A stretch of DNA of 4,054 nt from a virus (lineage: Duplodnaviria > Heunggongvirae > Uroviricota > Caudoviricetes). The stretch lies in IMG/VR virus record IMGVR_UViG_2695420685_000017; one strand, written 5' to 3'. The position numbers and the translations under genes were made by a program. Within the stretch, counting starts at the first letter, position 1. Each line of letters begins with the position of its first letter. The notes beneath the pieces were generated by a model. It was given only the letters and a program-made list of their open reading frames with translations. It had not been told where the DNA came from and ran no database searches. Shown piece by piece: positions 1 through 4,054 of the stretch.

Positions 1-199
1 CCCCGTCAGTAGCTGAACAGGAGGGACAGCTGATAGAAACAGAAGCCACTGGAGCACCTCAAAAACACCATCATACACTAAATCAGTAAGTTGGCAGCAT
101 CACCAAGGCATTAAAACTAAAAAATGATGAACTTGCAGTCGAGATTGAAACATTGAAAGTACTTGTACAATCACTATTCGATAATAAATAAATACAAAA

Positions 200-219
200 G
201 GGATAAATGGATTTATCCC
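200..219. promoter_or_regulatory. Perfect 9-bp inverted repeat GGGATAAAT-GG-ATTTATCCC, 29 bp upstream of the major tail protein start; possible operator or stem-loop
   Basis: Read directly: 200-208 GGGATAAAT is the exact reverse complement of 211-219 ATTTATCCC, with a 2-nt spacer. It lies in the untranslated leader upstream of the Shine-Dalgarno AAGGA (237-241). Function is not established. Confidence 0.35.
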
Positions 220-248
220 ATTAATTCAATTCTTATAAGGATATAAAT

Positions 249-710
249 ATGGCTATGGATATTTTTGCAGGTGCTAACCTACAGGTCGAAGTAGGTACAA
301 GTGCTGGCAGTACTATTGCAACGGATTTTGAAGTAATCCCGGAAGTGAATACCTTCACGACTTCAGGCTTTGAGAGTGCCGTAATTACTGTAAAAACATT
401 TAATAATGCGTATGACCGAAAATTATTAGGTACTAAATCAATCCCTGATATTAGTCTTGAAGTTAACTACTTACCGGATAATGTAGTACACCAAAAATTA
501 GAACAGCTTGCCGATGATCAGAAACGTTGTCAAATCAAACTCAGCTATTTTGAAGATGCGACTAAAACAACAGGATTCTATGTTATCTATACCTGTTTCG
601 TGTCGAGTACGACTATCGGTGGTGACAAGGATGAAGTCGTAACTAAGACCTTCACGCTTGCTGTAGATGGTGCTGCTATTGATTCAGGACTGATTACTGA
701 AACTCCATAA
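249..710 (+). CDS. Phage major tail (tube) protein, 153 aa
   Basis: ATG at 249 is preceded by AAGGA (237-241) with 7-nt spacing, and the ORF ends TAA at 708-710. It sits immediately upstream of the chaperone pair and tape measure gene, the conserved siphovirus order. Size (about 150 aa) and the predicted beta-rich, Thr/Val/Ser-rich composition fit a tail tube subunit. Family assignment is by synteny, not homology search. Confidence 0.75.
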   Translation: MAMDIFAGANLQVEVGTSAGSTIATDFEVIPEVNTFTTSGFESAVITVKTFNNAYDRKLLGTKSIPDISLEVNYLPDNVVHQKLEQLADDQKRCQIKLSYFEDATKTTGFYVIYTCFVSSTTIGGDKDEVVTKTFTLAVDGAAIDSGLITETP

Positions 711-720
711 TTTAATAAAT

Positions 721-749
721 AAAGGGAAGGTTATTAACTTTCCTTTTTT
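721..749 (+). terminator. Putative weak intrinsic terminator or attenuator hairpin between the major tail protein and chaperone genes
   Basis: 721-729 AAAGGGAAG pairs with 738-746 CTTTCCTTT (9 bp, one G-U pair, 8-nt loop), followed by TTT (747-749). The stem is AU-rich, so termination would be partial at best. Confidence 0.3.
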
Positions 750-767
750 CGTATATGGAGATAACAG

Positions 768-1067
768 ATGAATTTAATGGAACTAAAAAAGAAACTACAA
801 CCAGAGCTAAAACCATTTGAGATCGAAGGCTTCACGCTCTACATCCACCGTCCAAATGGTCGCGATTTTGCAAACTGTACTGATGTAGCAAATACTCTCA
901 TTCTTTGTGTTAAAGATGAAAATGGTGATCCTATTTTCTCTGATGAAGATATTGATGGGCGTATTAATGTCAACAGCATTGATTATGTTATGCAGGGCAA
1001 AATCTATCAGGCAATTATTCAACTTGTCAGTGACAGTAATCCAGTGGATGAAGTCGAAAAAAAGTAA
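768..1067 (+). CDS. Tail assembly chaperone, lambda gpG-like (99 aa), the upstream partner of a G/GT frameshift pair
   Basis: ATG at 768 has GGAG (757-760) at 7-nt spacing. It is a small acidic protein lying between the major tail protein and the tape measure gene, and it ends at a slippery heptamer followed by TAA (1065-1067). Confidence 0.8.
   Translation: MNLMELKKKLQPELKPFEIEGFTLYIHRPNGRDFANCTDVANTLILCVKDENGDPIFSDEDIDGRINVNSIDYVMQGKIYQAIIQLVSDSNPVDEVEKK
1058..1064 (+). promoter_or_regulatory. Programmed -1 ribosomal frameshift slippery heptamer A_AAA_AAG
   Basis: In the 768 frame the codons are GAA AAA AAG TAA, so the heptamer A AAA AAG (1058-1064) is in the correct X_XXY_YYZ register and is followed directly by the zero-frame stop. 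The -1 frame is open from 1052 through 1456. The downstream ORF has no Shine-Dalgarno of its own before its ATG at 1100. Confidence 0.65.
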
Positions 1068-1099
1068 GATGTGATAGCCATCTGCGGTACTTCTGTAAA

Positions 1100-1456
1100 A
1101 TGGTCAATAAACGTGGTTTATCACCAGATGAGTACTTTAATTTAGATCCTGAAGTACTCGATATGCTTATGGTTTACGATGCCTATATAGAACCGACAGG
1201 TACGCAAATTGAGATGTTGAAACATGCTTATCAGTGCTATTACACCACGATAAGTAATGGGAATCTCACGCCAGAGGCACGGCGTAGTATCAAAGTTGCT
1301 GATTTTGATTTTCTGGATGTTTTTAATAGCGATCTCACTACACAAGAAAAAGCAGAAGTGAAAGAACAGAAGAAAAAAGAAGCTCAGGCCAATGATATTA
1401 AATCAATCGGTGACGCTATCAGGAATCAGGTATTAGGAAAGAAGAATGGCAAATAA
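1100..1456 (+). CDS. Tail assembly chaperone -1-frame extension (T segment of gpGT-like protein); probably expressed mainly as a 768..1456 frameshift fusion of about 229 aa rather than from the ATG at 1100
   Basis: This frame is -1 relative to 768..1067 and is open from 1052, with its upstream stop TGA at 1049-1051. No SD-like motif precedes ATG 1100 (upstream sequence is GGTACTTCTGTAAA). Its stop TAA (1454-1456) overlaps the tape measure start, and the position matches the lambda G/GT arrangement. Confidence 0.7.
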   Translation: MVNKRGLSPDEYFNLDPEVLDMLMVYDAYIEPTGTQIEMLKHAYQCYYTTISNGNLTPEARRSIKVADFDFLDVFNSDLTTQEKAEVKEQKKKEAQANDIKSIGDAIRNQVLGKKNGK

Positions 1457-3665
1457 TAATAGAATTCGTTTTGATATTGACGGGGATACGTCAGGTTTAC
1501 AGCGTGCTTTGCGACAAGGCACCTCATCACTTGAAGAATTCGGTTCAAATGCTGGCGGTGTGATTGAAGATCTCACTGGCAGTTTTAGTGGGCTTGCTGG
1601 CGGTTTCGGTACGGCAATGACAGGTTTAGCGGGGGCTGCTGCAATTGGTATTGGTGGCCTTACTGCACTGGTCAATTCAAGCCGCGAATATGTGCGTGAA
1701 ATGAATGAAATCAGTCGTAGTGCTGGATTGTCCGTCATGCAGCTTCAGCAGCTATTGGCGGCGTTTAGCGGTCTTGGGCTTGAAATGGATAAGTTTGGGG
1801 ATTTCAACAAGGATACGCTCGATAAACTCGGGGATGCGTTCCGTGCTGGCGGCGGTGTTAGTGACGATCTTAAAGAGTACGGGCTGAACCTACAGCAATA
1901 TAACAAGTACCTTAAACAAGCAGATGGCGGTATGCAGGCCGTGATCCACACGTTTTATGCCATGCGGGATGCAGGTAAGTCACAGGCCGAAATCGTCAAC
2001 GTCATGGAAACACTGGCGAGTGATTCAAGCCACATGATCAGTACTCTACAGCAGTTCAATACTGAAGCCGATGCAATGACGTACATACAGGGCCAGAACG
2101 CCGCAGTGAGTAACGAGGCAGCGGCAAACTATGCAGAGTTCGATAAGAATCTGGATAAGCTGACAACCCGTATCAAAGGTACTATCGCTGATGGTCTGAA
2201 TCCACTCGTGGGGGCAATGAATGCAATACTGGATGCCGCCAATCAGAAGCCCCATGAAGCAGGGCTATTTGAAGATCTGAACGAGAAGATTAAAACGTCG
2301 AAGGGGTCATTACAGGATTTTTTAGACATATGGGAAAAGTTACGCACCTCCGGGGCTTTAAACTACCAGGGTGCAGCCTTGCAAACTGGCAGTATGGATA
2401 ATGGCAAGCAGAGTGTGTACGCCAGTGCTCAAGCCAATCTTGAAGGACTCGTGAATAACTTTCGCAATGACATAGCTACTGTTACGGCTCCGCAAGGTGG
2501 CTGGAAAGACGAAGCTAAAGAACGTGAGGATGCTCAGAAGAAAGCCGATCAGCTACGGAAACAGGCAGAACAAGTCCAAAAGCAGGCTGATACAAAAAGG
2601 CTACAGGCACAGCGTAATCTTGAAACGGCACTTGCTCAGGTCGGGGAAGAGGGCTTCAAAGTACGCCTACAGCAGTTCGACAGGCAACAGAAAGCCCTTC
2701 TTAAGACGATTACGGACAGTGCTCAGGTACTTGGAATATCACCAAAGCAACTTAAAGAATATGTCGATGCCGCAAATGCTTCTGGTACTAAACAACGTAA
2801 TGATTTAATCAATTCAATGGTTGGTTATCAAGATCCCAATCAGGGTCTGAAAGATACAAATAGCTTAATTTCTTCTGGTGTACTGAACAGTACTCAAAAA
2901 TCATTCCTAACAGATCAGCAAAATCAGCGTATCAATGGTGGTAATCCCTTAAGTTATGATAATACCGATCAATTACTGAAAGATAATCAGGATGCCATGA
3001 ATGCAGAACTTCAGCAGAATGATTTATTACTGAAGGGGCATGAAGATTATGAAAAGAGAAAGGCAGAGATTACGGCAAAGTATAATGCTCAGGCTATCGA
3101 TATCAGTAACCAGAATGCACAGCAACAACTAACAATTTTCAGCGATACAGCCCAATCCTTAAGTGATGGCATGGTCGCAGCGTTTGGTGAATCTTCAGGG
3201 GCAGCACAGGCGGCATTCGCATTGAGTAAGGGCATTACTATTGCTCAGACAGTACTCTCAATACAATCAGCATTAGCACAGGCTCTTGCTACGCCGTGGC
3301 CCGCAAGCCTCGCAAACTACGCTCAGGTACTATCGTTAGGTATGAGCATTATCAGTACTGCGAAGGGGGCTGCAAGTGGGCAGTTCCACGGCGGTGTAGA
3401 TGAATTGCCCGCTGGTATGGATAACAAAAGTTTTATACTGAAAGCCGGTGAGCGTGTAGTACAGCCAGAAGCTAACAAGAAGCTGACTAAGTTCCTCGAT
3501 ACTCAGGAGAAAGGCGGTGGTACTGCTGGAGATATCACCGTCAACGCCCCCTTGATCATTCAGGGAGACGTTGCAGGTGATGATAAGAAATTCAATGAAA
3601 TGTTGAAGAAGCACGCTAATAGCGTTACTCAGGCCGTAAGAAGCAGTCAGAGACGGAATACTTAA
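1446..3665 (+). CDS. Phage tail tape measure protein, 739 aa
   Basis: ATG at 1446 has AGGA (1435-1438) at 7-nt spacing and overlaps the upstream ORF by 11 nt. The protein is long and low in complexity: a Gly/Ala-rich hydrophobic N-terminal segment (GLAGGFGTAMTGLAGAAAIGIGGLTAL), a long Gln/Lys/Glu/Ala-rich helical central region, and a hydrophobic C-terminal segment (ITIAQTVLSIQSALAQALATPWPASLANYAQVLSLGMSIISTA). Position directly after the chaperone pair is diagnostic. Confidence 0.9.
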   Translation: MANNNRIRFDIDGDTSGLQRALRQGTSSLEEFGSNAGGVIEDLTGSFSGLAGGFGTAMTGLAGAAAIGIGGLTALVNSSREYVREMNEISRSAGLSVMQLQQLLAAFSGLGLEMDKFGDFNKDTLDKLGDAFRAGGGVSDDLKEYGLNLQQYNKYLKQADGGMQAVIHTFYAMRDAGKSQAEIVNVMETLASDSSHMISTLQQFNTEADAMTYIQGQNAAVSNEAAANYAEFDKNLDKLTTRIKGTIADGLNPLVGAMNAILDAANQKPHEAGLFEDLNEKIKTSKGSLQDFLDIWEKLRTSGALNYQGAALQTGSMDNGKQSVYASAQANLEGLVNNFRNDIATVTAPQGGWKDEAKEREDAQKKADQLRKQAEQVQKQADTKRLQAQRNLETALAQVGEEGFKVRLQQFDRQQKALLKTITDSAQVLGISPKQLKEYVDAANASGTKQRNDLINSMVGYQDPNQGLKDTNSLISSGVLNSTQKSFLTDQQNQRINGGNPLSYDNTDQLLKDNQDAMNAELQQNDLLLKGHEDYEKRKAEITAKYNAQAIDISNQNAQQQLTIFSDTAQSLSDGMVAAFGESSGAAQAAFALSKGITIAQTVLSIQSALAQALATPWPASLANYAQVLSLGMSIISTAKGAASGQFHGGVDELPAGMDNKSFILKAGERVVQPEANKKLTKFLDTQEKGGGTAGDITVNAPLIIQGDVAGDDKKFNEMLKKHANSVTQAVRSSQRRNT

Positions 3666-3686
3666 GAAAGCCCTACATGGGCTTTC
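3666..3686. terminator. Hairpin GAAAGCCC-TACAT-GGGCTTTC between convergent genes; putative bidirectional intrinsic terminator
   Basis: Read directly: an 8-bp stem with 4 G-C pairs and a 5-nt loop, starting 1 nt after the tape measure stop (3663-3665). It overlaps the last codons and stop of the minus-strand ORF and is followed on the + strand by the T-rich TCTTTG. Confidence 0.5.
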
Positions 3687-3927
3687 TCTTTGCAAGATAT
3701 TCGCATTTCTTTTTATAGATCAATTTGCGGGTATTGATCGACTTAATCTTTCTAAGTAACTGACTAAAACTTAACACTGTACTGGCAGAAATGAGAAACG
3801 TGTAAATGAATAGATTTGCTAATTTACCACCGTCAAAAGTGGAAATGTCTTTAAATATAAAAACGCCAACAAATATAGGTAGCAAAAAGCCACCTACTAA
3901 TATTACAACCAGACTAATATTAAACAT
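3673..3927 (-). CDS. Small hypothetical membrane protein, 84 aa, two predicted transmembrane segments and a strongly basic C-terminal tail; convergent to the tail operon (moron candidate)
   Basis: ATG is the complement of 3925-3927 and the stop TAG the complement of 3673-3675. Two hydrophobic stretches (ISLVVILVGGFLLPIFVGVFIF and LANLFIYTFLISASTVLSF) are followed by a Lys/Arg-rich tail. An 84-codon stop-free frame is unlikely by chance in such AT-rich DNA. Caveats: the SD is weak (only AAGTGA upstream), and AT-rich DNA yields Phe/Ile/Leu/Lys-rich translations by default. Confidence 0.5.
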   Translation of the reverse strand: MFNISLVVILVGGFLLPIFVGVFIFKDISTFDGGKLANLFIYTFLISASTVLSFSQLLRKIKSINTRKLIYKKKCEYLAKRKPM

Positions 3928-3973
3928 TTCACTTTTAGGGAAGGTGCGAATAAGCGGGGAAATTCTTCTCGGC

Positions 3974-3984
3974 TGACTCAGTCA
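3974..3984. promoter_or_regulatory. 11-bp palindrome TGACTCAGTCA in the upstream region of the minus-strand small gene; possible regulator binding site
   Basis: Read directly: TGACT-C-AGTCA is a 5-bp inverted repeat around a single central base, lying about 47-57 bp upstream of the minus-strand ATG (3927). No function is demonstrated. Confidence 0.2.
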
Positions 3985-4054
3985 TTTCATTTCTTCATGT
4001 TTGAGCCGATTTTTTCTCCCGTAAATGCCTTGAATCAGCCTATTTAGACCGTTT

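Follow-up and report, generated by a model that had tools for sequence, protein, structure and literature searches.

In the 4,054-bp stretch of IMG/VR virus record IMGVR_UViG_2695420685_000017, the whole of which is here called the window, the tape measure gene of a siphovirus-type tail module is followed by a minus-strand open reading frame (ORF) of 84 amino acids (aa). We conclude that this ORF is very probably the remnant of a moron-type cargo gene of the DUF6216 family that was cut by the insertion sequence (IS) element IS5. This level of confidence applies to the identity of the ORF and not to the mechanism of the intact protein. The intact gene, found in related loci, is a genuine moron-type accessory cargo that lies between the tape measure and distal tail genes on the opposite strand.

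A minus-strand ORF probably truncated by IS5

An earlier note on this DNA had described the segment after the tape measure gene as a self-contained gene for a small, basic-tailed protein with two transmembrane (TM) helices. Several of its observations hold. Coding on the plus strand ends at 3665 with the stop of the tape measure ORF, and the minus-strand ORF with the product that was reported is present at 3673..3927. Its product has two hydrophobic stretches, and its tail contains 11 K/R against 1 D/E. The features of this part of the window are:

3666..3686, hairpin GAAAGCCC-TACAT-GGGCTTTC, at the operon boundary after the tape measure gene
3673..3938, minus strand, 3' remnant of a DUF6216-family gene (residues 123-209 and stop), identical to 12228..12493 of locus L002
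3935..3938, IS5 target site TTAG; ...cacttTTAGatgttt... in the intact sequence, ...cacttTTAG joined to ggaaggtgcg in the window
3939..4054, minus strand, IS5 terminus beginning exactly at 3939, 116/116 identical to the low-coordinate end of IS5A of MG1655 (K-12)

Of the approximately 380 bp that follow the tape measure gene, the last 116 bases (3939..4054) are the IS5 terminus and not phage DNA. Seven loci carry the region intact (L001-L007), and window positions 105..3938 are identical to them at 3833 of 3834 bases. In each of these loci, the tape measure gene is followed on the minus strand by a gene for a 209-aa protein with a DUF6216 Pfam match. The 84-aa ORF starts at an internal methionine of this gene (Met126) and equals residues 126-209 of the intact protein. 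Its reading frame is open upstream of the ATG and continues into the IS5 end, which starts 11 bases upstream of that ATG; the ORF is thus not self-contained. Comparison of the intact and window DNA at the junction therefore places the insertion of IS5 at TTAG inside codon 122. IS5 prefers YTAR targets, and here an exact terminal inverted-repeat end abuts a target of this type (TTAG before 3939). IS5 disrupts genes in Enterobacteriaceae in the same manner, with an exact terminus at a TTAG target within an ORF, and nothing about the present case is unusual; the far junction and the 4-bp duplication fall outside the window.

The IS5 end in the window is the one nearest the 3' end of the transposase gene, which is on the minus strand and directed at the remnant (in MG1655 IS5A, insH1 is on the minus strand, 147 nt inside the low-coordinate end). 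A simple IS5 insertion would predict ...CTTGTTCGCACCTTCC-TTAG-ATGTTTTTTTGACTTTC... on the far side of the element, followed by the first 122 codons of the gene and then by the distal tail gene. Any other arrangement past IS5 would mean an IS5-mediated deletion or rearrangement.

The remnant is the C-terminal 40% of a three-TM DUF6216 protein of 209 aa, and not a small two-TM protein. Lost from the window copy are TM1, the whole conserved cytoplasmic domain, the native start codon and the upstream region. None of the 12 residues conserved in the family (0/12) is kept, and in a Pfam scan the remnant alone scores no DUF6216 match. No Shine-Dalgarno-like sequence precedes the ATG of the ORF, as read from the sequence (CCTAAAAGTGAA-ATG), and no record of the 84-aa product as a called gene was found among 153 billion gene positions. 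Since it lacks the conserved family residues and a recognisable ribosome-binding site, the window copy is most likely a dead, inactive pseudogene fragment of a DUF6216 member rather than a functional member. The interruption is recent, because the remnant has zero substitutions relative to the intact copies and the flanking 3.8 kb is one base off them. As a recently IS5-broken accessory gene of a kind common in Enterobacteriaceae, the window feature itself matters little; the comparison with related loci is more useful.

The intact gene and the DUF6216 family

The intact 209-aa protein matches PF19723 (DUF6216) with 75.7 bits (E 4.8e-21, residues 11-144; gathering cutoff, 27.3 bits), and its RefSeq name is 'DUF6216 family protein'. 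Of 27 aligned relatives, 27 match this family. An exhaustive profile search indicates that the family is small, with 90 clusters at 50% identity. Two forms occur. The short form is about 200 aa and its members align end to end; the canonical long form is 270-300 aa and carries an extra segment of ~80 residues, with two conserved cysteines, between TM2 and TM3. The intact gene shares with the family TM1, the motif block RSGS...NK.W..F.G.K...D[IV].[KR]FN, TM2, TM3 and the basic tail. It differs from the 270-300-aa members in being a short form (~200-209 aa) without the ~80-residue cysteine segment.

Based on hydropathy and charge, the predicted layout of the protein is a short periplasmic N-terminus, TM1 (~11-27), a cytoplasmic domain of ~90 aa (17 K/R), TM2 (~131-147), a periplasmic loop of 12-13 residues, TM3 (~161-177) and a strongly basic cytoplasmic tail. 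In the long forms, the place of the cysteine segment is exactly this TM2-TM3 loop, which provides independent support for a periplasmic location of the loop and for this orientation. The conserved residues Y30, R34, G36, S37, N43, D69, F73, N74 and N78 all fall within the cytoplasmic block after TM1. Together with the near-invariant G51, I87 and F90, all of them are present in the intact gene.

Between orthologues, the ratio of nonsynonymous to synonymous substitution rates (dN/dS, Nei-Gojobori) is 0.06-0.09 in both halves of the gene, and thus the intact gene is functional and under strong purifying selection. Relatives with as little as 56-58% identity keep the same frame and position. According to the source records, its hosts are E. 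coli, Klebsiella and Scandinavium.

The sampled short forms (100-56% identity) are prophage cargo. Those long forms that were sampled are chromosomal orphans and lack a conserved partner. In an Enterobacteriaceae isolate, a long form occurs with colicin-E5/immunity genes and toxin-antitoxin pairs, downstream of fdhE. In Aeromonas caviae (L014/L015, 8001-12519), a long-form gene is located at the accessory end of a P2-like prophage, just past the GpA replication gene, where it adjoins an H-NS-like gene and a XamI-type restriction-modification pair.

A cargo slot at the tape-measure/distal-tail junction

In L001-L007 the 209-aa gene is followed on the plus strand by genes for a 185-aa distal tail protein, a 207-aa protein, a DUF6950 protein and a 1,067-aa protein with fn3 and Phage_Tail_Tip matches. 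Plus-strand distal tail and tail-tip genes therefore resume directly after the intact gene, as the earlier note had envisaged for a moron. Its alternative, the edge of a degraded prophage, is right to the extent that this copy is bracketed by IS1 and IS5 ends.

We surveyed the slot by searching viral contigs with the adjacent distal tail protein, which recovered 23 related modules (99-70% identity). The occupancy of the slot is:

12/23 loci, empty, gap 35-66 bp
4/23 loci, DUF6216, gap ~665 bp
5/23 loci, a ~190-aa single-TM protein (PHROG 3829, unknown function), gap ~590 bp
2/23 loci, a ~260-aa DUF726 hydrolase-like protein (PHROG 35015, unknown function), gap ~900 bp

Presence and absence in relatives, by which the proposal of a moron was to be judged, thus gives 12 empty slots, four with DUF6216 and seven with other opposite-strand cargo. 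All cargos are single genes on the opposite strand with a GC content of 0.31-0.37. The other cargos were located, all on the minus strand, at L022:4427-4999, L033:4424-4999, L031:4141-4923 and L032:4149-4937. The ~190-aa protein has one N-terminal TM helix, and the ~260-aa protein is alpha-beta-hydrolase-like with a GHSLG motif; PADLOC returned no match for either. The nearest sequenced phage, Klebsiella phage KLB5, was not informative for the presence/absence comparison, as its tape measure gene is followed by a tip module of another, lambda-like type.

We use the term moron as it is defined in PMC3594210. The variable presence of such genes is evident here, with the slot empty in 12/23 related modules. 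Since half of the relatives lack any cargo, the intact gene is dispensable for the phage. A distinct composition is seen weakly: GC content is 0.39-0.47 in the tape measure gene, 0.31-0.37 in the cargo and 0.35-0.39 in the downstream tail genes, a contrast that is clear toward the tape measure gene and small toward the downstream genes. The same holds within the window, where the segment after the tape measure gene had been called markedly AT-rich. The GC content of 3673..3938 is 0.32 compared with 0.465 for the tape measure gene, yet the other tail genes have only 0.36-0.39. The proposal of a moron stands for the intact gene, which is optional in relatives and on the opposite strand, but the window copy is only its broken remnant.

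The hairpin at 3666..3686 has a predicted folding free energy of -15 kcal/mol on the plus strand and -16 kcal/mol on the minus strand (z, -3.6 and -4.4), and 0 of 200 shuffled sequences were as stable. The minus-strand gene ends within it: the final four codons (K-R-K-P/M region) and the stop fall in the hairpin, the stop in its loop. A scan for consensus terminators does not call it, with 4 T after the stem (manual count) where the scan requires 5. Comparable hairpins also occur after the tape measure gene in relatives with an empty slot, and for this reason we regard the hairpin as a feature of the tail-module backbone. The terminator proposed earlier is thus real as a stable hairpin, but it is not the ORF's own. 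At the other side of the slot, the start codon of the intact gene abuts a ATAAATAC motif located ~30 nt before the start of the distal tail gene. This motif, like the hairpin, is common to filled and empty slots. The slot is therefore an operon boundary, and what has been inserted is little more than the ORF. From the arrangement of these signals, the junction resembles a boundary of the terminator-plus-restart type, at which the site would be permissive for cargo. The junction signals are at L002:12221-12241 and 12858-12866, and at L027:4939-5000; in L027 the hairpin has a T-run, as in a textbook terminator. In the short-form proteins the C-terminal K-P is invariant. Its codons lie within the stem of the hairpin (AGAAAGCCC, window 3673-3686), and what keeps it unchanged may be the RNA/DNA hairpin and not the function of the protein.

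We found no description of a hotspot at the tape-measure/distal-tail junction in the literature searched. The survey gives the DUF6216 family a defined ecological setting: a hotspot in the tail operon, where it occurs as optional cargo under selection and on the opposite strand. With the two other uncharacterised cargos of this slot, there are three single-gene candidates for anti-phage or lysogen-benefit screens.

Possible roles of the intact protein

By analogy with known inner-membrane exclusion proteins, the intact DUF6216 protein would be made in the lysogen and located in the inner membrane, where it would act at the tape-measure/inner-membrane step and keep incoming long-tailed phages from injecting their genomes. 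Such superinfection exclusion would work like that by P22 SieA or HK97 gp15, without homology to either. We put this mechanism forward tentatively, as one possibility. Similarly tentative is the suggestion that the short-form DUF6216 proteins may be an unrecognised, SieA-convergent family of prophage superinfection-exclusion proteins, with the slot an anti-phage hotspot for at least three interchangeable single-gene systems (DUF6216, the ~190-aa PHROG 3829 protein and the ~260-aa DUF726-like hydrolase of PHROG 35015). If DUF6216 blocks injection, it would be an independent example of inner-membrane exclusion proteins that interfere with tape-measure-mediated DNA entry.

P22 SieA is a 164-aa inner-membrane protein with three TM helices that blocks DNA injection (PMC10883804). 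Analysed with the same hydropathy method, it has the same layout as the DUF6216 protein: a short N-terminus, TM1, a charged cytoplasmic segment, TM2, a loop, TM3 and a cytoplasmic tail. It is likewise a single-gene unit of similar size (164 versus 209 aa), encoded convergently and directly after a DNA-delivery gene, which in P22 is the last ejection-protein gene and here the tape measure gene (sieA, 13336..13830, minus strand; gene 16, 11484..13313, plus strand). Unlike the DUF6216 protein, in which the conserved block lies between TM1 and TM2, SieA has its conserved motif in the C-terminal tail, and it is a podovirus protein that acts on ejection proteins. A short 'FN[FK]' resemblance to the SieA motif (FxRYPxEAxxFNK) was rejected as a sign of homology on the hhalign result given below; the D-V-A-K-F-N of DUF6216 is in a different protein segment. 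With homology undetectable (below), SieA shows what DUF6216 may work like, but does not indicate membership. Morons have HK97 gp15 as their founding example (PMC3594210). It resembles the present case as an accessory inner-membrane protein encoded in the tail operon next to the tape measure gene, and in the mostly chromosomal location of its relatives (PMC3594210). However, its gene is between the chaperone and tape measure genes rather than after the tape measure gene (PMC3594210), and it belongs to the YebO family, for which the DUF6216 protein gave no match in a Pfam scan at E<=1.

A number of results weigh against an exclusion gene cut by IS5. Alignment of the DUF6216 profile to SieA with hhalign gives a probability of 0.6%, which is no detectable homology. 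The DUF6216 protein has no match in PHROG, PADLOC or NCBIfam and no homologue in 50,697 phage records. The literature on DUF6216 consists of one unrelated mention with no functional evidence; no solved relative of the protein was found, and AlphaFold models of moderate confidence (mean predicted local distance difference test scores of 78 and 75) have no informative structural neighbour. For expression in the lysogen, consensus scans and alignment of the upstream region revealed no convincing σ70 promoter of the gene's own; its start codon is 35 bp from the start of the distal tail gene, and the lone σ70-like match immediately upstream (12885..12856) overlaps the start codon. The long forms have mixed contexts, some near conflict genes and one among metabolic genes. 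As to the truncation, the IS5 junction has no exact match in species-representative genomes, metagenomes or viral contigs.

It is also quite conceivable, though short of probable, that the intact protein has a lysogen-benefit or conflict role other than an injection block, for example as an infection-triggered abortive-infection membrane effector, a host-membrane modulator, or an immunity or addiction function; the window copy would still be an IS5-cut remnant. Moron-type behaviour and purifying selection are the same under such a role. The long forms are orphans in variable regions, some beside toxin-antitoxin, bacteriocin/immunity or restriction-modification genes, and the conserved core of the protein is cytoplasmic rather than periplasmic, which suits intracellular sensing or signalling at least as well as contact with a tail tip. 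On the other hand, no enzymatic or known effector domain was found: the Pfam scan at E<=1 gives DUF6216 and two sub-threshold unrelated matches only, and a weak SLATT-like DUF4231 match (14.4 bits against a cutoff of 24.7, E 0.05) was rejected, as it occurs in 1/27 family members only. The position and layout of the gene also parallel those of SieA.

Two readings that take the 84-aa ORF closer to face value fare worse. That it is a complete, self-contained two-TM gene, functional in the window and with its own terminator, is very unlikely. It does have an ATG, two TM helices, a basic tail and a hairpin that overlaps its 3' end, and with the IS5 transposase gene directed at it, read-through transcription is conceivable. 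But the ATG is Met126 of the 209-aa gene with IS5 a mere 11 bases upstream, the conserved family residues are all missing, the product is unrecorded, there is no Shine-Dalgarno-like sequence, and the hairpin belongs to the backbone. Less likely still, and rejected here, is a holin or other lysis-timing membrane protein, whether for the intact gene or the remnant, an option raised by the earlier note as a class-II-holin-like topology. Class II holins are taken here as proteins of ~65-95 aa with two TM helices that are endolysin-linked and required for lysis. The remnant alone resembles one (~80 aa, two TM helices, charged C-terminus), whereas the true protein is too long (209 aa), and its topology of three TM helices plus a 90-aa cytoplasmic domain is not that of a holin. 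In the relatives the lysozyme gene is ~6 kb away, no PHROG lysis family is matched, and the slot is empty in about half (12/23), hence the gene is dispensable. The chromosomal homologues also stand alone, with no endolysin nearby. An IS5-cut remnant of a DUF6216 cargo gene thus accounts for the ORF better than either.

Other features of the window

The window is an IS1/IS5-bracketed prophage fragment, a siphovirus-type tail-module stretch with one IS end on each side. Besides the features given above, it contains:

1..104, minus strand, IS1 terminus (insA-proximal end), 104/104 identical to the end of IS1A of MG1655 (K-12), with the boundary exact at 104
105..190, plus strand, 3' end of a 917-aa fibre-like gene cut by IS1, with a weak Peptidase_S74 match in relatives
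249..710, plus strand, gene for the 153-aa major tail (tube) protein; the identical gene of L001-L007 matches PF08813 Phage_tail_3, RefSeq name 'phage tail tube protein'
768..1067 and 1100..1456, plus strand, tail assembly chaperone pair, recognised by the ORFs, a slippery site and the place between the tube and tape measure genes
1446..3665, plus strand, gene for the 739-aa tape measure protein, which shares 32-52% identity with its annotated counterparts in Klebsiella and Serratia phages

The remaining part of IS1 is beyond the left edge of the window. Between IS1 (104/105) and IS5 (3939), 3.8 kb of tail genes are left as an island. Whole-window megablast against 5,426 complete E. coli genomes gave matches at the two ends only, in thousands of records with IS1/IS5 transposase annotations; the window interior had no near match by megablast in complete E. 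coli genomes, plasmids or phages. A total of 156 contigs with the label E. coli, one of them 4.9 Mb long, encode exactly the 209-aa protein, but the 5,426 complete RefSeq genomes gave no match to the interior. Judged by these matches, the prophage seems to be absent from that complete-RefSeq E. coli collection.

Window position 105 corresponds to L002 position 8660, within the 917-aa gene (L002 5993..8746). An A_AAA_AAG slippery site (1058..1064) is found at the end of ORF 768..1067, and the -1 frame, traced by hand, is open from 1052 into 1100..1456. The position of a chaperone pair between the tube and tape measure genes is canonical. As predicted from the frames, the two ORFs and the canonical -1 frameshift site are a tail-assembly-chaperone G/GT arrangement.

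Exact matches to the tape measure protein occur in 57 blocks of the collection, and the 24 contigs that were read carry it. With a GC content of 0.465 and stretches >0.50, against 0.36-0.39 for the neighbouring tail genes, the tape measure gene is the compositional odd one out. It also has a low-GC patch at ~2700-3000, whose composition suggests that the gene may be mosaic. The sole interior difference between the window and all seven intact loci is at position 1322 (T in the window, C in the loci), in the second chaperone ORF.

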